DNA from: Raillietiella orientalis
Taxonomy: Eukaryota
Reading direction: 5' to 3'
Length of the DNA: 64,000 nucleotides
Assembly (NCBI GenBank): GCA_036172245.1
Contig: JAYWIR010000059.1
Location: 186,001 to 250,000, forward strand
A program made the translations under genes and the position numbers. The stretch's first letter is position 1; the number at the start of each line of letters is the position of its first letter. Below the pieces are notes generated by a model. That model was given only the letters and a program-made list of their open reading frames with translations, searched no databases and was not told the DNA's origin. Positions 1,071 through 45,150 of this stretch are shown here, in pieces.

Positions 1071-1095
1071 AAAGTTCCGCTAAGACAGTCCACAA

Positions 1096-1108
1096 GATAA
1101 GAACAGAT
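1096..1108 (-). ncRNA. 13-nt U2 snRNA fragment (U2 nt ~38-50), a target-site remnant rather than a gene
   Basis: The reverse complement reads ATCTGTTCTTATC, identical to the conserved U2 sequence GUAGUA-UCUGUUCUUAUC-AG as recalled. It directly follows ...CCTTAATTAAA at the 3' end of the RLE element. Confidence 0.65.
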
Positions 1109-2400
1109 TTTAATTAAGGAGATTGAGGTACAGTAAATAACAAATACAGTGGGACCACTTAATCACCATCTAAATATTCGCTCCCATTTCTATAAGGGAT
1201 GGAAGGTTGTAGGCTGGAACCTATAGATTTTCTTCCGGACGTCCTGTAGGATATCCCCCCAGGATATTCCACTTCTTGGTTGATGAGCTGTCTCATTTGG
1301 TCTTCATCGTTCAACCGAAGTGTGGTTTATGCATCGTCTAGAAGTCTCGCCCAAGTACATGTGTCCAGTACCGGATGAAAATGAGACCACCACAGGGTAT
1401 CTCATTTTTCTCCGAATACTTTCTAGGGGCGCCCGGATCACGAATCACAGCATCGTTCTCAGAGTACCAAGTTCCAAGAGATCTGACGATGAAGGCGCAA
1501 ACTTTGCACTGGTTCTTGTCTCGGTACTTGTTGATTTTTTCTCCTCTTCATTCCATGCTGAACGCCTGTTCTCGATTTTCAAATGGGCAGCACGCGTCTA
1601 TCCTCCTGCAGAACATTAAATCAGGCCGCAGGGTGGGAACAACTCCTGGAATCTTTCCATGACTGAGCACCAACTTCCATCCAGCCACATTCCACGCGGC
1701 GTTTCTTGAGCTTCCCCACTATTGCATCGTGTCGCGTGGTGCAGAGACGAGGATGCATCCTGCAGCGGTTTGCGACATGAAGCTGCATCCTTCCGTCCCG
1801 CTCCTCTGCTGCATCCTTCCGTTCCGAAGGCATCCATGTAATCAAGGTAGGTCTTGGAACGAGATGAGAGACGCATGGTCTCTGGGTTTCCTTCAATGGG
1901 CCTCCTCGGGTTTTCGAGTTTGCAGTTACGGATGAGGAAAATTTCCTTTCGAGCAAGAAGACGCTTGAAACTTCTCAGGGACCTCGGGAGGGAAGGGATG
2001 GCTCTGAGCTCCTCGCAAGGGAAGCTCCCTTTTCAGGAACTCTTCAGGAAGTCGCACCATGTAGCTACACGCGGGTGCATGCAAGGGTCGTCCACCTGTT
2101 GAAACACTTGAAATCGGGAAACAAGTGGGCAGACGGACAAGGCACGCGGTGCCGTGCTTTGAAGTCTGTCAGCTCTGCGTGATGTGTTGACAAAAGGAAC
2201 GAAGAGAAATCACTGACGACGGAAGGGACGATCACCACCGTGAGCCTGACTTGTGTGCATCCGTCCGATTGGATCAAGATGGGATCAGGATTGCGACCCT
2301 ATTTTCCATTCTCTGAATATTCCGAGGGACCTGACTTCCAAGATGCGGTTCCCGCTAAGGATGAACGAGTAAATTCTTCCAGTACTAAAAATTTTGCTTC
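1109..2400 (-). mobile_element. 3' part of a Utopia/NeSL-like RLE non-LTR retrotransposon (RT thumb remnant, zinc knuckle, RLE, 3' UTR), pseudogenised
   Basis: HVANRCRMHPRLCTTRHDAIV (knuckle + RHD motif, ORF 1621-1956). Then TLRPDLMFCRRIDACCPFENREQAF...KINKY...FIVRSLGTWYSENDAV (PD..D RLE motifs) at ~1430-1650. The 3' UTR ends in AATTAAA next to the U2 match. Confidence 0.8.
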
Positions 2401-2505
2401 CGAGTAACCCACGTTTGAGGTTATCGCAAAGGTCTGCCCAATCTCAGTTCAATGATCGATCCTCATTTTGGAGGGATGTCCATCGTGATCAACATCACCT
2501 CGATC

Positions 2506-2543
2506 ACTGCCTTCGAGGTGATCAACATCACCTCGAAGGCAGT
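2506..2543. repeat. Perfect 17-bp inverted repeat with 4-nt loop, preceded by a partial direct copy
   Basis: ACTGCCTTCGAGGTGAT-CAAC-ATCACCTCGAAGGCAGT; GTGATCAACATCACCTCGA also occurs just upstream (~2485-2503). Confidence 0.95.
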
Positions 2544-2743
2544 TGTTGGACATGTGCTGCCCATTCGAGGGTGAAAAAGAATCTTTCAGCACAGCTAGGA
2601 GGAACGAATTGGAAAAATATAAGGAAGTAGCCCCCCAGCTAGGTAAGGAAAGGAAGCAATGCACGGTGCATGCTCTCATCGTTGGCTCTCTGGGAGCCTG
2701 GGACCCAGAAAACGAGGAAGTGCTGCAGGATCTTGGAATTTGA
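2540..2743 (+). mobile_element. RLE domain fragment of a Utopia/NeSL-like retrotransposon
   Basis: LDMCCPFEGEKESFSTARRNELEKYKEV...VHALIVGSLGAWDPENEEVLQDLGI has the D..CPFE, K.KY and IVG.LG.WDP.N motifs. It is cut off at ~2740 by the 3' end of a Tx1-like copy. Confidence 0.85.
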
Positions 2744-3170
2744 ACCCTGTTTCTTTGGGATGTTTATTGTAAAACAAGAACAAAACAGACTATAAGGAGG
2801 AAGGGAAGAAGGGTATCCTCTCAGAAACACGAAACGCCAGAAAAAAAAAGTTCACTCGGGATAACCACCGGCGCTCAAGCAGACTTCCAAAGACTAGGGA
2901 ACGGAGGGGAGGGACAATAAATAAATAAAAAAAGACGGGAGGGTGGGGATAGGGATCTTCGGTATGTAACATTCCTTAATTTTCAGAAGCGACTGTGGAT
3001 GGTGGAAATCTTTTTGATGACTTCAGGAAGATGAGGCCACCTTGCTGCTGACCTTATGAGGGCTGCTGCCATGCTGGTGGTCTCCGCCTCGAACTTGATT
3101 CCTGCACAAGGTGAACTATCACTATGGCGCGGATGCAACAGATGGTTGCGATCACAGCGTCTCGCAACCC
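2740..3170 (-). mobile_element. 5'-truncated Tx1/L1-like copy: ORF2 C-terminus + 3' UTR
   Basis: The minus strand encodes AVIATICCIRAIV and SAARWPHLPE, matching AIIATTGCLRAIV/AIRWPHLEE (6090-6230) and ASRWPHLDP (9630-9660). Pyrimidine-rich UTR, AATAAA at 2763-2768. Confidence 0.75.
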
Positions 3171-4380
3171 TGTTTGCGTGTCAACACCGCCGGCTTCCAT
3201 CTTACGGCTTCGCTCTCAGGTGTGTCACTGCTCTGGTGAGAGCGAACACGTGGATTTCCTGCCGCCCTGCGAACATTCCGGCCTGGCGGTAGGAAAAAGT
3301 GAGGACGTGGGCTCACTCACCCAAACCCCGTCGGAAGTTACCCGCTGCCAAGAGTTTCAGAAGAACAGCGGAAGAACCCTGGAGACGGTGGGTAGTGAGC
3401 TGACCATGTTGGCCTACCCAGCAGCCACCCCCTTCGCCTCAGCGGTGTCCTCCGCTATCGAGGTACATGGCACCTGCCTACCGGCGAAGTGGGAGGTTTT
3501 TTGCGAGATCCCGCAGGAAACCTATCGGTGGCTGGACACCGCATCAGCCAGCTGACTCGGCAACAGCAAGAACCGTCTCCAAAGGACTCGAATGTTGGGG
3601 CGAACTCTTCTCCATTCAGCCCGAAGAGTTATAAGTGCCTCCCGTATTTATGGACAGCAAGCTGCTTCCCCTCAAGTGGCAGCAATCAGCGCTGCTGATA
3701 CTGCACTGGGGTCTTTCGAGCAATGCGCGACGGCACCACTGGACGAGGGGAGGCGCATCGTCGAACTTTATCGTCGAACTGTGCCAGATGTGGAAAGGAG
3801 ACATTCCCCCACCTCATAGTGCAGTACGTTGCCCTCCGAGAATTGTGGGAACGTTTCTCTGCGTCCCTTTCGCACCCCGTAGACGATCCCAGAGACTCAT
3901 TGAGGCCTCTCTTCGTGCGGCACGCCATGATGCGTGCAGCAACAATCTCAGCGCGGTGTCGTCGCGGCGAAGTGCGACGCCGAGAGAAGCCGGAGAAACA
4001 GGGAGGGCTGTCTTGCACTCCACCGCTTCCTGCGGATGGCTTCGAGGTGACTCCACCTGGAAAGGAAGGAAGAGGAACTCTCCAACATCCTTCAACCGAT
4101 GCGGAAGCCCCACCTATCACAAAATGTGATCCCTTCCCTCCCCCCAACTAATTTTTGTTTTTTTGTTGTTAGTTATAGTTTGTTTCCATTTTCTATTTTT
4201 GTTTTATCCCCCTTCCCCTTCGTGGACGTGATGGACCTCTCCGCTCCCCCTCTTCTTTCCAGTGTAACAATTGGAATTGGTAGGCCATCGGCTCCATCGA
4301 TTCCTGTTGGAGAATAAACATCTGGCGCAGCCGGGTGTGGAATCACAGCGTTTTTTTTCACTCGACTTTCTGTAAAAAGT
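3170..4380 (+). mobile_element. 5'-truncated Tx1/L1-like copy: post-RT region, zinc knuckle, 3' UTR
   Basis: LVRANTWISCRPAN, AKWEV, LPLKWQQSALLILHWGLSSNARRHHW and CARCGKETFPHL align with ORF 8478-9719. Frameshifted. Confidence 0.85.
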
Positions 4381-4620
4381 CTATTGCAGTGTCCTGCGGT
4401 TTGCGGAGTGCCGACGCGCCACTAGTCCTCGAGGTAGCTGCAGTTCAACAGGATGTGCAGGAGTGATTCCATCATCCCACACCTGGAACAGTTCAGGGAA
4501 GCGACTCCACAGGAAAGCAGGTGTCTGTGCTGATTGCACTGGAATCCCCAGTGCAGAGACAGCAGAACATCCTGTTTCCACCGGAGCGGAAACATGGAGA
4601 TGTCCACTCAAAGAGGAGAG
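4381..4620 (-). mobile_element. Tx1/L1-like zinc-knuckle fragment
   Basis: MDISMFPLRWKQDVLLSLHWGFQCNQHRH...NCSRCGMMESLLHILLNC (C-x2-C-x7-H-x4-C). Confidence 0.85.
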
Positions 4621-4689
4621 ACTATGAGTTCTTCGGGGGGCACACCAAGCAGATCATTTCATCACTTCATCAAACAGCAAAACAAGCGC

Positions 4690-7600
4690 AGACATGAAAA
4701 AAACTGGCAAAGCCAGCTTCAAGAACGGTAGAAAGGCTGACCTGAAGCCTGCCAAAAAGGCCACGTCGACCACTTCGCCTGTGGAAACGCAGACTGCCGA
4801 AGTGGAAGGAGTGGATCCTGGCTGGCAAATGGTCAGCTACAAAAAGGGAGACAAGAACAAAAATGAATCGACCCCCAAAGAAATCGCCAAAAACGCGATT
4901 TCAAAACGTAAAAAATGCACGCTTAACCTGCAGAGCATTCCCGTCGCCGCGAAGCAGTGCAAAATGGACGTTTCCATGTGCAACAGCGCTGACAGCCCGC
5001 GACAGTGAAAATAGTCATCGAGGGTTGCGGTGAGGGGGAGAGCTTTTGTCAAAGCGGCAGAGGAGCTGGCCGCCATGCTTCGGCAGTCTGCCAAGGCAGC
5101 CGACAGACGTCTGATCTCCAGGAAGGAGTCCGAGACCTCGGGCTCCGACCCAGTGGTCGGAAGCTCACCACCCGCGTCTGCACCTTCGCGAAATCCTGGA
5201 CGGAAGTTCAGGAATCCCAGGAGGATCGACTCTTCCAAAGAAGGCGAATCTTCCGGAAACGAGGATGTGGCGAAAGTGGGAGCTCAGGACTCGTCTCCTG
5301 ATACTCTCCCACTCTCAGACGCTGTGTAGCCCATGGAAGCGGAAAGGATCGCCGAGGTGCCCCCAGCCGCAGGGTCCGCAAGCAGCACCCCGCCTGGAGC
5401 GGAGTCGGGAGGCGCAGCATCATTTTCCCAGCAGTAATGTCGGGACTCGCCACCTGCCGTCGACTACGCGTTGCTGGCTGGAACGTTAACGGGCTACGCG
5501 ACGATGGCAGAAGACGAGACACAGCTGCCGCCCTGCAGCCCTTCGACCTCGTGCTTCTGCAGGAGATCCACCAGATCTCTGAAGAGATCGAAAAGATAGC
5601 GGGCGGTCAGCTCTTGTGACGTTGCTGCTCCTGCCGGTCATGCGGGTTCGCCTTCCTGCTCAAGCCTGCCCTGAGACGCGCGGTATAAAGCGTACGTTTC
5701 AACGAGGCAGGTCGAGTCGGTCAAATCATCTTCAGGTAGACAGACTCGATCGATCTCGTTACGAACGTGCACGCACCGAGCAGTGGCTGCGCTCGCACGG
5801 CCTAGAGAACCTTCCGTGTCCTGAAGTGCGACTGGCTGGCGGAGACAGGCGTGCGTGATAACCGGTGATTTCAACATCCGACAGTGCAACAAGAGACAGC
5901 ATCGAGTTTCAGAGGTGTCCGCGAACTGCGGCAGGTGCGGGGCGACGGAGTCCATCCTGTACATGCTTTTGGACTGCGGTACTCTTCAAAGACTGTGGCG
6001 GAGGCTGGCAACAGCACCCCTGCACCAGGAGGATACCGTAAGAGACGTGATGAGGCGGTTCTTCGCTGCGAACGGTCGCTCGACGGGAGCAATCATCGCA
6101 ACCACGGGTTGCCTCCGGGCTATCGTTTCGGCCCGAGAGGTGCAGGAAATCACTGCGCATAGGAGGGAAGCACCAAGATGGCAGCTACCCACATCGGGGA
6201 AGCTATAAGGTGGCCTCACCTGGAAGAAGAAAATAAGATCACCGGCATCCATGGTCGGATGGCTTGGAACGGTGAACCCGATGATCCTTATCCTCTCCTT
6301 CCATTCATCTCTTCTGTGTGTGTGTGTTTTCGTATTCCGCTTCCCACACGCTCCGTAACTTTCTTTGTGCTTTTTCTTCTTTTTTGTATTCCGGTGAATA
6401 CGGAGCGTCACCAAAGATCCCTGCCCCTTCCCTCCCATCTTGACTTTTTTTTTGTGTGTTGCCCCCTAGCCTCTACCCGGTCTACTACCGTTCCGGTCAT
6501 TCCATTTTTTCGGCCTGCGTACCGGAGGACTCTCCCTTTCTTCTTTTGTTGTCTTGGCTGGGAACTGTGTTCCCGACCGGTTTGAAATAAATGTCCCGGT
6601 GTAACCGGGCAACAAATTTCAATATCTACCTGCTGTCAGGTGCGGCGAAGAAAGAGGCCACCCCGGTTAACGAGATCTATGCTGCGATGCACGCGTCCAA
6701 CTTAGCCGGGGAGCTCGGGATGGAGGGAAGAGTGGACCACGTCTTCCTCGACGAGCACCTGAGTTCCCACTTGGGGAGGCAAGGAAAGATGCCGTCCACG
6801 CTCTCCGACCACTCCCAGGTGGAACTTGAAACTCTTTCGCGTAACAGGGGACCCCCCCTCTCAGGCGTGGTGACTTCCGAGGGACTGACTCAACACGTCA
6901 GGTGCAGAGGAACGCCTCCGCGCGTTCTTGAGAGCTTTCAGAGTGCAGACGCTCGACGACTAGGATGATTTGAGGGTCTCGGTCCGAGAGTTCTGTGGGC
7001 ATTTACCCTTGGACTGTCTCCCAAGAGGATTTGACGAGGGTGTTCGGAACGAAAGATTGTACTTGCAGGTTCATCGCTACACCCGAATACCGGACATCCG
7101 CCGACTAGCAGAGTCAAAGCCAAGCCTGGCAATCCGAGTCGGCCAGCCAGCTGGACGATGACGATCAGGAGCACTCAAACCCTGCGGCGATAAAGCGCCT
7201 AGTGCTCAGTTATTACTCCTTCCTCTATGCCAGGACACCTCCGGAGCGGGGCATCTCTCGGTTCTCGCTTCCGGAAGGCGCCACAGCGATCATGAAGGAG
7301 GAGAGAGTACTCCCCGACGAGCCTTTCACGAAGAGTGAAAGCATCACCACAATCGGGAAGCTCAAGAGACGGAAGGCACCAGGGAAAGACGGCCTGCCTG
7401 CGGAGTTCTTCCAATGCTTCGCGGCGGAGCTCACCTCCCTGGTGCAGCGCTTAACCCTGCTGATTTGGGAGACGGGAGACGCTTCCACCACCTTTCGATC
7501 GGCACAGATGCGTCTCCTCTCAAAGGGAGGGTACTTACGGAACCTCAGCAACTGGCGTCCGATCACCGTGTTGAACGCGGGCTCCAAGTAGCTGGCGAAA

Positions 7601-9928
7601 CTTTGGTCTGAGTGATTAGGGCAGCTTCATTAGCCCGGAGCAGAATTATGCTGTTCTCGGGAGGAGTATGGATCTCAACCTGCTCTTTGCGGACACCTGG
7701 TTCGGGTTCCAGCGGAGAAGAACGAACAAAGGGAACACGGGCGGCACCCCGAATTCCGGGAAATCCTCCGGTGGTAAGCGAGTTGGTCGGAAAGGAGAGG
7801 GGGCTCTTGCGGTAGAGTCTACTTGCGGAAAGCATCCGACTGCGTCGACCAGAATCTCCTGCTGGAGCTTCTGGGACGCTTGGGCTTCCCGGCCTCATTA
7901 TTGGCCTATCTGCGCTCCAGCTGGCGCGACGCGCTCATCAACGTTTCTTTCAGCGGGCAGACCGTGCACGGCGTGCCGGTGCAGCGTGGGATCCGGCAGG
8001 GAGACAGCCTGATTCCCTTGCTCTTCAGTACCTACTTCGAGTTGGTACTAAGGACGTACAGGGAAACTCTGGCGCGCCTGCCGCACGACTGCGCCGGTAC
8101 GCCGGCGATTTCAGCGTACGCGGACGACCTCCTGCTACTGCTCCCTATGTCCACTCCGGCTTCGGTGGTCGAGAAGTTCTTCGACCTGCTGAATCGAGGA
8201 ACTGGGCTTACGGTGAACAGGGCGAAGTCGTCCGTGATGCCAGTTGGTGCGGCGTGGGCAGGGCAGCAGGACTGGGTCCGTTTGGGGATCCCCACGGTGA
8301 GGTACTCCAAGTACCTTGGTGTGCCGTTGGGGGACTACTCCCCTGCAGAAGCGTGGTCCGGCTGCCTTCAAAAAGTAGAGACGGCTATCGGCCCGTTCCG
8401 AGGCGGCAGGTTTTTCCTGCCTGAACGGGCCGCGGTTTGGAACATGTTCGCGGCTCCTCTCCTCCGTTCCCTGCTTTTTGTTTGCCCCCCCCACAGAGAG
8501 GATCAAAAAGCGAACGAAGGACCTCCTCCGTATCGCCCTTTGGGGCAACGGGAGGGCCCGAGTCCGCTTGAAGGACTTGTGCGCTCTGCGTCGGGACGGC
8601 GGTCTCGGCCTCCTGACATTGGAGCGGCTGGAGCTTCAGCTCCAGTTTCGGATGACGGCCGTTGTGCAAGAGTTGTGGTGCACCTGCTGGTGCATCCCTG
8701 CACGCCTCCTCGTCAAGAAAGCCACCGGGAAGATGGGACTCACGTCCTTTCTTTCACTCCATCGCTCCCGCATCAACCGCTGTGGGCTCCAGCTGCGGAG
8801 GGTTGCTGCCTTGGTTCGGAAAAACTACGGATGGATCACCTGTCGCCCCGCGAACGGTTGTGCCTGGTTGCAGGAAACCGTTTGCACGTGGGCACAGTGC
8901 GGCATGCAACGCGCCCAACAGGAACGACGGTTCCTGTTTGGGTGCTACAGAAGTTGCACGCTCCGAGGGATCCTGGAGGATCCGAAGAAGCGAGCGTGGT
9001 CAGGAAGAACTCCCCTCGCTGCTGCTCTGGCCTCCCTAGTGGAAGATCAGGACAGCGATGTTGCGGCGAAGTGGGAGGTTACAATAAAAATCTCCGGGAA
9101 GGAGAAGAAGCAGAGAGAGTGGAAGACGGGCCAGCTAACTGATGCTGCGACCCCGAGTACGCCTCCTAATGGACTTCTGCGCTGGGGCGCGATGCTCGTT
9201 GTTCCGATTGAACATCTGAAGTGGCCCTTGGCGCTCATGAACACTTCCACCCTCCCCTTAAAGTGGCAGGAGTCGGCTCTACTGTTGCAGCACTGGGGAC
9301 TCCCCTGCAACGCCCGCCGACACCACTGTACCTGGGGAGCGGTCGATCCCAACTGTGTTAGGTGTGGGAAACGGGAGTCCCTCCCCCACCTCCCAGTGGA
9401 TTGTGTTGCCCTTCGGCCCCTTTGGTTCCGCTTTGCCGCGGCCATCGGTATCCCCTGCGGCAACCCCAGGGACGCATTGAAAGCCCTCTTCGTGGCCGAC
9501 GCCCTTCGGCCAGCGGCCTCGATAGCAGCCTTGTGCTGCCTTCGCGAGATCGTCGCCGCATGGAGCACGGCTACGGGAGGACCACGCGATAAGGATCCCA
9601 TCCAGGGCGCCGCCCAATTCATGAAAAGGGCGTCGCGATGGCCCCACCTGGATCCGCGAATGCAAGAAGAGCTTGCCGGCGTCCTGAGAAGGATGCAACG
9701 GCCCTACCAGCTACAGTGATCCCTTCCTATACCCTCCCACCTTTTCTTTTTGTTTAGTTTTTTGTTTATTCCCCTTTCCCCCTGCTGCCATGGTGGACCG
9801 TACCGGTCTGCGAACCGGTGACCCGGTAGGCTCTGTGTTTCTTCGTGCGTGGCTGGAGCATTGGTCCAGCCACTGCACTTTGTAAAAGTTTATTTTTAAA
9901 TAAACGCTCGGCGAAATTCGGGTGAAAA
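4690..9928 (+). mobile_element. Near full-length Tx1/L1-clade non-LTR retrotransposon (possible ORF1 tail, APE, RT, zinc knuckle, 3' UTR), inactivated, with a nested insertion at 5879-6615
   Basis: APE: LRVAGWNVNGL...DLVLLQEIH (5460-5570), ITGDFN (5858-5875), RVDHVFL...LSDHS (6730-6815). RT: KAPGKDGLPAEFF, NWRPITVLN, LRKASDCVD, RGIRQGDSLIPLLF, SAYADDLLL (~8110-8137), KYLGVPL. Then GGLGL and NCVRCGKRESLPHLPVDC. Stop at 9717-9719, AATAAA at 9899-9904. Internal stops (~6961-6968, 7589-7591) and frameshifts. The ORF1 assignment of 4690-5430 is weak. Confidence 0.92.
5879..6615 (+). mobile_element. 5'-truncated Tx1-like copy nested in the APE domain of the larger element
   Basis: QCNKRQHR...NCGRCGATESILYMLLDC...RWPHL, a pyrimidine-rich UTR, AATAAA at 6586-6591 and a terminal hairpin. 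Flanked by ATTTCAACATC (5868-5878) and ATTTCAATATC (6616-6626). Confidence 0.85.
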
Positions 9929-19614: not shown

Positions 19615-21209
19615 AGATTCCTCCAGTCCTTTTTTTTTCTTTTGTGGTTCTCCAAGTGCTGAAGAACCGCTCGTCTCCTTAGGGGAGACCCACGAAGCTC
19701 TTCAACGTCGTCCACGCCACCCGGGGTGCGTGTCAACTCTTCAAGTTAGGTTCATCACACGGTCACGCCGGGTCCTTTATTATAAAAAATAAACATATGT
19801 GTAGGGCCATCGGCCCTACATTGTCCGAAAATGTTCGGAACCTGCCGAATAACACCACTCACACAGGCTGGCGACGTTCGCCTCGGCAGAGGAGGGGGAA
19901 AGAGCAAACAAAAATAAAAATAAAATAAAAATCAATAAAAAAGACTCTGGAGGGCACGGGAAGGAATCACTGTCCACTGGAGGGCGTCCCTCTCGCGCCG
20001 TCCTCCTCTCGCTTAGCTCCAGGCTGCCACAATCCCGCGTAGGCAGCAAGGAGCTGCTGGGGATGCGGCAGACGAAAGGGCATCGAGCACGAAGAGGCGC
20101 TTCGTCACCTCCCTGGGATTGCCCGTCGGTGCACCAAGGGCTGTTTCGTAACGCGACCACAAGGGTCGGAGGGCAACACAGTCTACAAGTAGGTGCGGGA
20201 GTTGGCATTCCCGTTCCCCGCACCTGCAACAGTTGGGGACCACTGCCCCCCGGATCCAGTGAGACCGGCGGGCGTTGCTGGGGAGGTCCCAGTGCAGCAG
20301 CAGAAGTGCCGACTTCTGCCACTTCAGGGGGAAGACCCGGTTGTTCTTCAGAGCAGGGGATCACTCGAGGTCTTCCTGTGTGATTCCCCACAGCAGCTCA
20401 GCAGATCCTCAGCAGAAAGATTCATTCGTTCCATAATGGAAATTCTTCTTTTCTGTCTTCGCAGCTATTTGACACGGTCCCACGCCACCCGAGGGTGCGT
20501 GTAACTCGTCAAGATGGGAATGCCCCGGGAGGAGACCTCCCTATGATACCAGGAAAGGGCTCGGAGTCCGTTCCTCTCACGCCTGGGGAGGGATCCCCGG
20601 AATGGGATCATCTCCACCCTGGTCATCTAAGAAGGGAATCTCCTTCCTTATTCTCTCCGGAGGGACCCCCAGAGGGGTTCTCTCCATTTTTCTTTTCCAA
20701 AGGAAACCAGAAAAGATACGCTAGGAGGAATTTCTTCTCCGGAGGGATCATCCGCAAGGGAACCTCTTCTGGTTTTCTCCTCTGAAGAGAACCCCGAAGG
20801 GATGCTTCCCAATTTTCTCTGAAGGGGCGCTCCCCGAAGGGAGCTGCACATCTCGTCACGCTCTGGAGGGGTATCAATCCACCAGCTCCATGATACGAGA
20901 TGGAGGTCATACCCCCGAGGAAGGAAGGGGGGGGAGTAACGGATCCATTCGTACAACCAGAGGGCTCCTTGATTCCTGAAAGGACCCCGGAGGGTCAACT
21001 TGCAATCCTGGTCACTCAGCGGGAGCATCCCGCTTCCACCAGTGCTGCGCCCGAAGCTCGTAGGCCAACCATAGTCACCCTGCTAGTGAGACTCGAAACC
21101 CACGACGCACCCACGTTCTCGGCGGCAATCCTCCTCTTGGGGATTCGAACCCGCGACGCTTTGGTACCACGCGCGGTGATCCACCATTGACGATTGCCAT
21201 GCGGCTCCC
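19615..21209 (-). mobile_element. tRNA-headed SINE-like repeat, copy 1 (interrupted by a Tx1-like insertion at ~19750-20470)
   Basis: Head reads GGGAGCCGCATGGC...AATGG...GTCGCGGGTTCGAATCCC (B-box at 21140-21152). Colinear homology to 45160-45920 over the whole body and again beyond the insertion (19615-19745). Confidence 0.75.
19750..20470 (-). mobile_element. 5'-truncated Tx1-like copy (zinc knuckle, 3' UTR, terminal hairpin)
   Basis: FPLKWQKSALLLLHWDLPSNARRSHW...NCCRCGERECQLPHLLVDCVALRPLWSR, close to ORF 8478-9719. AATAAA at 19776-19781. Confidence 0.88.
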
Positions 21210-43082: not shown

Positions 43083-44300
43083 TTTTCACCGGCCATGCCG
43101 GGGTGTTTATTTAAGAAGGAAATAATTGACAGAATAACTTGGGAAAAGAGTTCACAAGGGTAACAAATAGAAGACCGCGGGACGGGTTCACCGGTACGCA
43201 GGCTTGACATGCAGAGAATCCGGAGTGGGAGGAAGGGGACAATAAACCAAAATGGATAGGGAAATAGAGGGTAGGAGTCTTAAATGTAGCCTATTCCTTC
43301 ATCTCTACATCCCTCGCAAGGTGTGAATGAACTCCCTGGATTCTTTTGAGTGGAAATGGATATTCCCCGCTACAGCTCTCACGAAGAGACCTGCTAGGGG
43401 GATGACTTCCCGCTGCTTACCATAGCTCCGGAACTACTCGGGCTGTGAAGATGGTGCGTACGCAATCCAATGTTGCCATTACCACGCCAAATGAAAGTCC
43501 GTCCCATGTAAAGAAGCGTCGCGGCAAGTATTTCGTCGTGCCATTCGAATGTACCAGAGCTCAATTCAGCCTGCTCCACCGCTCCTGGAGGGCACCGCAT
43601 TCCAATAATGAGTGCAGGAACGATTCAATCGTTCCAGACCTAGAACAGTTCAAGGACTCAATTCCCCTGGAAACGAGGTTTAGGTGCCTTTTTACATTGA
43701 AAACTCTAATGTAGAAAGAGCAACACCTCATGTGACCACTTGAAGGTAAGTATGGAAGCATTTATACAGAGGACAGGGACCCCTAGTTCTGCAGAAACAT
43801 ACTGAAGAGTTCTTTCCACCGAAGCAGATCGGTGTCACTTCATTTGAAACGAAGAAATAGATGGAGTACATATAGGCTGCCCATTATGGTCACTGAAGAA
43901 AGATCAAGAGCATCCAGAGATGGTGAATAAAAAACAAATCCCTAATAGTCACCTATAGCAAACCCATGCAACAGAAAAGGGAAAATACGAAAAGCCAAAA
44001 AGAGATTCTGCAGTCAAAGATGTACATCAGTTTGTAGATGAAAGGATTTATTTTCATGAATTGAACTGTTGAATGGTTCAGAAAGCCTAGAATGGAACAC
44101 CTTTGGAACAAAGCTGTCAGCAAAAAAGTCCGCAATAAAGGGAAATAAAAGTTATCGGAAAATTTCTAGAAAAAAAACGGGTAGGTATGATAAAATTCAT
44201 CACAGTGAAGTGCAAGGGCTGTACCGGATCATCCGGCGAAGAGCAATGAGAACAGCTTTGGGTTTACAGATACGAAGTGCAAAATGCCAGTTCAGGAAGT
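43083..44300 (-). mobile_element. Decayed Tx1-like copy (RT remnant, zinc knuckle, 3' UTR, terminal hairpin)
   Basis: NVKRHLNLVSRGIESLNCSRSGTIESFLHSLLECGALQERW (43561-43720) matches the 4381-4620 subfamily. Terminus AATAAA-CACCCCGGCATGGCCGGTG-AAAA at 43083-43111. The part above 43800 is weakly supported. Confidence 0.75.
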
Positions 44301-44399
44301 CATAGAGCACCTTGTCTGTTCCAGCTGGAATCATTTATAGGTTCTTCTATGCTGCGAAGTATCAAGATGGGAAGGAGCAACTCAGCACAAACAATGTTC

Positions 44400-45150
44400 C
44401 GTCGATCTTATGCAAAGAGGAAAATTCGTTCCCAGGATCTGATGAAATCACCTTCTATGGATGAAATCCCGTGGGCACGGAGACCGATATACTTGATACA
44501 TGCCTTAGGTTTAGACAAAATCCTATTCACTGGAAGCATTCATGGACAGTCCTACTCCCCAAATCAATCTCAGCATGAAAGGAGGCCAATATCAGTCTAT
44601 AAGAGCCAACATCTATTGTCTCTGTACAAAATATCTATCAAGAGACTATGAGAATGGCTCATGGATAACAAAATCATGTTCCTGACGAAGGACTCCCCCC
44701 CCCATGTGATGGAGTCCTGGAACAAAATTGCGTTTTGCAGCCTGGACTCGACGACTCTAGAAGACGTTTACAAGACTTATATATTGCAAGAATAAATATG
44801 AAGATTTTTGCAGCATATCGAACAAGTTGCTGCGTGGATCCAGCGAGAAAATGGACTGGGAGCGATTTTCGAAAGTATCGTCAAAAATCGTGTTTAGATG
44901 CACACACGTTTGTGCGAAAAGTCATAAGCCACCAGCACATTCAGATTAAACGGGAGTCAAGCAGGAATACATCCCTGGCTGCCTGTTGAACGAAAGGTAG
45001 AGCGTTGCCTCGGAGGTATTTCCATTCTAGTACACGGAGGCGATTTGACATTGAGCGCAAGTAGGGAGATGGACTTCGTGAGAGCATTTATCTGTTCCAT
45101 GATATGGGGCAGAAAACTGGGCTATCAGTCAAACTCTGCGAATGTACATC
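44400..45150 (+). mobile_element. RT fragment of an RLE-type (Utopia/NeSL/R2-like) retrotransposon
   Basis: Across frameshifts: SPSMDEIPW, WKHSWTVLLPK, RRPISV, KRL*EWLMDNKI, PCDGVLEQNCVLQPGLDDSRRRLQDLYIA (cf. P.DG..EHN..LQ..LD..RR...L.VAWLD) and IQIKR/GVKQ. Confidence 0.75.

Follow-up and report, generated by a model that had tools for sequence, protein, structure and literature searches.

How does a site-specific LINE with a low-copy target come to lie away from that target, and where do the few target bases at its new end come from? These questions are raised by a locus in a 64-kb window of the Raillietiella orientalis genome (the whole stretch of DNA analysed here, 64,000 nucleotides), where the minus-strand end of an RLE element, ...CAATCTCCTTAATTAAA, runs into ATCTGTTCTTATC at 1108-1096 and then into TTGTGGAC, and where similarity to U2 snRNA stops after 1096 (Table 1). 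We confirmed this arrangement, reported in the initial annotation, except that the A at 1108 could be the final base of the A-rich element end, as the 3′ flank published for Utopia starts TCTG (flank descriptions in PMC4640811); 12 bases (1107-1096) are thus unambiguous. According to the Rfam consensus, ATCTGTTCTTATC is U2 from the Utopia/Keno site onwards, and U2 of Raillietiella orientalis goes on AGCTTAAT. The 12-13 tail bases contain no mismatch to U2. With up to one mismatch tolerated, ATCTGTTCTTATC matches the window at this position only, a one-mismatch match arose in 9/100 shuffles (mean 0.12), and the exact 13-mer occurs 41 times in the 210-Mb assembly versus once for a reversed control. 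An Rfam scan of the 64-kb window gave no match to any family, U2 and rRNA included, and blastn found no remainder of U2 in the window or in the 8 kb beyond its start.

Table 1. Features of the U2-tailed element remnant and its neighbours (positions in the window)
Feature	Position	Strand	Remarks
U2 snRNA tail, 13 nt (12 unambiguous)	1096..1108	-	starts at the Utopia/Keno target site, stops in the 5′ arm of U2 stem IIa
ATTAAA hexamer closing the element (AATAAA in L002)	1109..1114	-	candidate polyadenylation signal
3′ UTR and extreme ORF end	1109..1349	-	DNA homology to L002; protein homology stops 242 nt short of the junction
Decayed C-terminal ORF remnant	1350..1790	-	end of zinc knuckle (RHD 1734), RLE motifs; no RT remaining
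5′ truncation point	1782..1822	-	a 15-bp direct repeat (1822-1808, 1796-1782) overlaps it
Dispersed repeat, ~120 bp	2391..2503		>30 genomic matches, 74-91% identity
Inverted repeat, 38 bp	2506..2543		adjoins the ~120-bp dispersed repeat
RLE fragment	2522..2740	+	82% identity to L093 of the sister lineage; 3′ side cut off where a minus-strand element end starts, near 2760
Decayed LINE piece of another type	2760..4700	-	presumably Tx1-type
Decayed LINE piece of another type	5300..9720	+	presumably Tx1-type; RT by Pfam at 7778-9139
Decayed LINE piece of another type	~19990..20390	-	presumably Tx1-type
Decayed LINE piece of another type	43180..44800		presumably Tx1-type

Anatomy and decay of the element

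The segment from 1109 to ~1790 on the minus strand is best explained as a dead, decayed, 5′-truncated Utopia, an RLE LINE of the NeSL clade, ~680 bp long and away from any U2 gene; taken jointly with the origin of the tail proposed below, we consider this reading moderately probable. Its RLE motifs, RPDL (1628), CPFE, KY (1529) and LGTW (W at 1469), are spread, together with RHD, over two minus frames that are broken by one frameshift, one in-frame stop and several indels. Pfam matched no family on the RLE segments. The ORF of a cousin, L008, aligns with the window copy by tblastn (E 2e-18) and with R2 protein structures (E 3e-14). The hexamer that closes the element recurs in the genome, AATAAA or ATTAAA lying within 12 nt of the junction at 22/29 loci selected by the 13-mer pattern and at 16/30 loci selected by Rfam.

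At the 5′ end, no significant homology extends above ~1790, where the score was equalled by 16/100 shuffles. The window copy has no U2 5′ head: the best score, 19, is at background, compared with 42-68 for real heads. No target-site duplication was found, the longest match between the flanks being 6 nt and far from the junction in a copy that is old and whose 5′ boundary is approximate. No empty site was found, as the flanks have no homologue at the junctions. The plus-strand RLE fragment at 2522-2740 was considered as an inverted part of the window copy and rejected, since it repeats the same domain and belongs to another lineage.

Closest relatives and the RLE tree

A DNA search of the genome yielded two other copies of the window element, L002 and L003. 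L002 shares 67% DNA identity from 1783 through the 3′ UTR to 1096 and ends at the identical junction, so the 3′ end had been placed correctly; its tail comprises 21 nt of U2 followed by unrelated DNA. L003 is 69% identical over 195 nt and continues into the whole U2 3′ part and flank (~200 nt), a long U2 flank being expected of at least some copies of a Utopia family. A weaker resemblance to the last 50 nt (score 29.5, versus 67 for the L002 locus) is found in L060, which has a tail of 137 nt.

A within-genome tree of the zinc knuckle and RLE (109 rows; fast search, SH-aLRT support, midpoint root; L003, L012, L015, L023, L030 and L037 dropped for having <110 residues) joins the window copy with L002 and L219 (SH-aLRT 92.6), inside a large clade that holds every U2-tailed row but L007. 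The sister lineage, which includes L219 and a large young family, ends AATAAA-like and then runs into unrelated DNA, with no U2 among the matches listed. The RLE domain, the junction at the U2 site, the U2 tails of the nearest relatives and the position among U2-tailed copies together uphold the assignment to Utopia. The expectation that other copies would have U2 at the junction holds for L002 and L003 but not for the sister lineage, nor for most RLE copies sampled below.

As described in the family accounts of PMC4640811 (Kojima and Jurka 2015), Utopia is alike in having an RLE after the zinc knuckle, an A-rich 3′ end and a junction at U2 TCTGTTCTT after GTAGTA. Arthropod families are reported there without target duplication; in the window copy, which is old and has an approximate 5′ boundary, none was found. 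The U2 5′ part was recorded at the 5′ junction of 11/65 Utopia families in the same accounts, so its absence from the window copy is no objection. As the window copy has no RT, it was placed by the within-genome RLE tree rather than against named Utopia or NeSL families. Keno, of the Tx1 clade, has a 3′ flank identical to the window junction as depicted in PMC4640811; however, it has an APE endonuclease, whereas the window ORF remnant is an RLE. R2 has a C-terminal domain homologous to that of the window element, yet it belongs to another clade and uses another target: the window flank is U2, with no rRNA match and no evidence of Myb or RT.

U2 tails across the genome

U2 tails behind such elements range from ~5 to >400 nt at dispersed loci, many extending past the mature snRNA end. 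In a sample selected by RLE similarity (94 loci, from 150 scored, 2041 candidates), a U2 tail scoring at least 9 is present at 11/94 loci (two of them, L204 and L216, doubtful), antisense 28S at 5/94 and a U2 head upstream at 10/94, with unrelated flanks in those inspected; 83/94 loci have no U2 tail of score or length of at least 9, so tails are a minority. The head of L118 lies 3.3 kb from ORF homology and was left out of the count of linked heads. At 29 exact AAATCTGTTCTTATC sites, a set chosen for having the 13-mer and whose length spectrum is therefore biased, the tail measures at most 25 nt in 8/29, 44-137 nt in 10/29 and at least 151 nt in 11/29, and RLE homology lies upstream at 20/29. 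The eight short tails include L044, a 13-nt match with no RLE upstream and a possible chance site. L040, L047 and L048 share one tail end point, the 21st base, located in U2 loop IIa. At L058, a run of ~15 A follows 14 nt of U2. Around short-tailed copies, the remainder of U2 within 5-8 kb is absent in 8/9; in the other, L042, the tail was split by a later insertion.

Rfam gave a complementary set. The best 30 of 46 U2 matches all begin at the target site and lack the U2 5′ end, with RLE homology within 1.5 kb upstream in 16/30. In 26/30 of these best matches, a common sequence continues >20 nt past the mature snRNA end, with break-off at 124-418 nt; this common sequence is probably the flank of the U2 gene. 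An inverted second U2 piece occurs in 10/30 long tails (L010, L011, L012, L015, L016, L017, L020, L021, L024 and L027; also L045/L046), 200-360 nt behind the first junction and in some cases with an element 3′ end of its own.

One insertion can be set against host sequence. The L124/L076 unit consists of a U2 head and 1.5 kb of element and is situated within the ORF end of another LINE; aligned with L244, this host LINE is nearly continuous across the unit and shows no duplication. The 5-nt "tail" of L076, TCTGT, aligns with host sequence, indicating that short tails can be target-derived. When empty sites were sought for 11 head-bearing and 12 short-tailed loci in the DNA of the compared loci, homologues appeared only for the L124 5′ flank, and genome searches with the flanks of L043 and L076 did not reveal the host sequence a second time.

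U2 heads and the missing U2 genes

A pattern search of the assembly found no intact U2 gene. U2 of Raillietiella orientalis has an extra A; the pattern without it had 0 matches, and the pattern with it, at up to 3 mismatches, had 10 matches versus 6 for a control, including four short U2 pieces that span an intact target (L063, L064, L065 and L068) and no whole gene. The best candidate for a genuinely disrupted U2 gene is L007 (G000:C389, a 2.7-kb contig), where a short target repeat and then a truncated element separate U2 nt 1-38 from a nearly perfect U2 3′ part.

Separately, 38 stand-alone U2 heads were examined (of 40 among the matches listed, 127 candidates). All 38 (L141-L178) are nearly identical U2 5′ ends running from nt 1 to 34-38, with unrelated flanks; a duplication of at least 7 nt is present in 8/38, against a null mean of 0.025, and several duplications overlap the last U2 bases. 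They look like tailless retropseudogenes that end at the Utopia site. The account of such retropseudogenes in PMC5322556, by which priming occurs internally where the RNA is single-stranded and complementary to the target, fits the 38 heads, and the U2-headed SINEU and Tx1-Mar elements of PMC4494074 provide a parallel in which U2 5′ ends were added to retroelements. The cases presented in these two papers differ from the window copy in being attributed to L1 or Tx1 machinery and in involving the U2 5′ end; here the U2 part is 3′ of the target and there is no head. At L043, L036 and L060 there are minimal units in which 24-75 nt of element 3′ end separate a U2 head from a U2 tail of 15, 52 and 137 nt; the head of L060 is partly inverted.

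Origin of the U2 tail

The reading that we favour, with moderate confidence and largely from the other copies, is that the U2 bases were brought in with the element on read-through RNA that was primed within its tail at a nick elsewhere. A parent copy inside a U2 gene would have been transcribed past its own 3′ end into U2, and the element protein would have nicked an unrelated site. The nicked strand would then have primed reverse transcription on the U2 tail, a few matching bases helping, so that the stretch between the priming point and the element, 12-13 nt at the window copy, was copied in; reverse transcription would have halted after the ~680 nt that are present. The last few of the 12-13 tail bases may be host microhomology. 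On such a route, TCTGTTCTTATC at the junction would arrive with the element rather than being already present at the empty site. R2 offers a precedent: in the sections of PMC6795142 on its priming, it is co-transcribed with target RNA, downstream target sequence aids priming, and read-through target RNA anneals.

The window copy itself provides the element, its 3′ end, the tail and the lack of other U2 sequence; other copies supply the range of tail lengths, the read-through beyond the end of the snRNA, a poly(A)-bearing tail, the U2 heads and one insertion in another LINE. By arithmetic, ~0.0004 chance 20-nt sites are expected in 210 Mb, so tails of 20 nt and more are not chance sites, and tails that pass the snRNA end have a source other than mature U2. 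The initial annotation had offered a co-transcribed U2 tail or a cut at a U2-like off-target, and tails of 20 nt and more tip the balance towards the former, even though the 5-nt tail at L076/L124 is host sequence. Other observations count against a carried tail: the window copy is old, sharing 67% identity with its closest relative, and may have lost part of a longer tail; and U2 tails are missing from the 83/94 RLE-selected loci and from the sister lineage. As no true U2 gene was found in the assembly, the long-tailed loci could also be U2 genes disrupted in place.

The strongest rival is one that we regard as unlikely but deserving weight: a longer U2 tail, either carried or left by disruption of a U2 gene or pseudogene in place, was later cut to 13 nt by deletion or insertion. 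Such trimming would suit the age and the many indels of this copy, which lies among nested decayed elements; its relative L003 has a full tail, the tail of L042 was split, and 5′ U2 pieces in Phytophthora can be lost at integration according to the Phytophthora examples in PMC4640811. Yet the window and the 8 kb beyond it contain no U2 remainder, head or common U2 flank, the 12-13 bases are free of mismatches, and short tails are common with an end point that recurs across species, a recurrence not predicted by random erosion.

That nothing was carried at all, the endonuclease having met a chance U2-like 12-13-mer and inserted the element ahead of the match, seems to us improbable. By arithmetic, 210 Mb should hold about 6 chance 13-mers, the TCTGT of L076 is host-derived, and weakened target preference is the explanation given in PMC4640811 for the short U2-like flanks on reptile copies; but the reversed control occurs only once genome-wide, the upstream half of the target is missing at the 5′ end, and the 20-400 nt tails, including that of the closest relative, would be left unexplained. 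Slightly less probable still is canonical-site insertion into a short U2 fragment retroposed earlier, for although the four short U2 pieces with an intact target exist and U2 5′ ends are widely retroposed here (38/38 examined being short heads with unrelated flanks), the upstream U2 bases are missing at the 5′ junction, the 38 heads stop at nt 34-38, before the tail begins, and the same process may itself have generated the four spanning pieces.

A related family in antisense 28S rDNA

A NeSL-like RLE family is represented on the minus strand by L132 (G000:C81:71000-77500) and L133 (G000:C83:276500-283000), together with L222, L193 and L200. L132 and L133 have long open frames of 924 and 817 aa with RT by Pfam. 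The 3′ ends of the family join antisense 28S rDNA at one site, the flank starting GTTACTCCCGCC; L133 has 28S on both sides, and L132 contains tandem copies. This site is ~70 nt from the antisense LIN24/LIN26 site depicted in S6 Fig of PMC4640811. In the tree, the 28S family stands apart from the large U2-tailed clade (split 100) and shares a clade with the U2-flanked L007, an arrangement from which a U2-to-28S target switch is possible.

Discussion

Utopia outside U2 genes with short U2-like flanks, and one 21-nt fragment, have been described before (Kojima and Jurka 2015; PMC4640811). Counted by eye in its S1 Fig, 2/20 turtle Utopia-1_CPB copies have exactly ATCTGTTCTTATC followed by unrelated DNA, and 6/14 aphid copies and 1/7 beetle copies stop at the 20-nt point where three tails end in this genome; the same figure includes aphid Utopia copies with tails of 7-20 nt. 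Because published examples already include turtle copies with this 13-mer and aphid copies stopping at that 20-nt point, the window locus is an unremarkable relic of a known family, its type of junction being present in that supplement. Compared with the flanks displayed there, Raillietiella orientalis adds tails that extend well beyond the end of the snRNA, as well as U2 heads whose flanks are unrelated. The paper reads short flanks as weakened target preference, and a term search of its main text found no "read-through", "transduction" or "polyadenyl". Carried U2 tails are undescribed for Utopia in the titles and abstract openings of the open literature searched, a body that mostly leaves out subscription papers and Repbase notes. 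The weight of the present analysis lies in the genome-wide evidence for RNA-carried tails and in the 28S-antisense relative.

In general, AATAAA directs 3′ processing ~20 nt downstream. A broader reading, to which we give about even credence, is that the "weak specificity" of Utopia is largely RNA-tail priming. Through AATAAA or read-through, the element RNA would end in U2 sequence, the favoured end point, seen in this genome and in aphid and beetle, lying ~20 nt inside U2, in loop IIa. Priming along this tail would then place 0-400 nt of U2 at unrelated locations, in many cases preceded by U2 nt 1-35. Such a process would account for the dozens of U2 halves scattered here, for whole lineages off U2 and for one related lineage now antisense in 28S rDNA, at a site that S6 Fig of PMC4640811 does not depict for the planarian families. 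The Rfam U2 matches in this assembly, of which the best 30 of 46 lack the 5′ end, call for caution, being retro-fragments.

Taken together, the window copy is one data point on how a site-specific LINE leaves a target of low copy number. If the tails ride on RNA, target choice would be partly a matter of RNA-DNA pairing, which would bear on the evolution of target switches and on the engineering of RLE elements for gene insertion.
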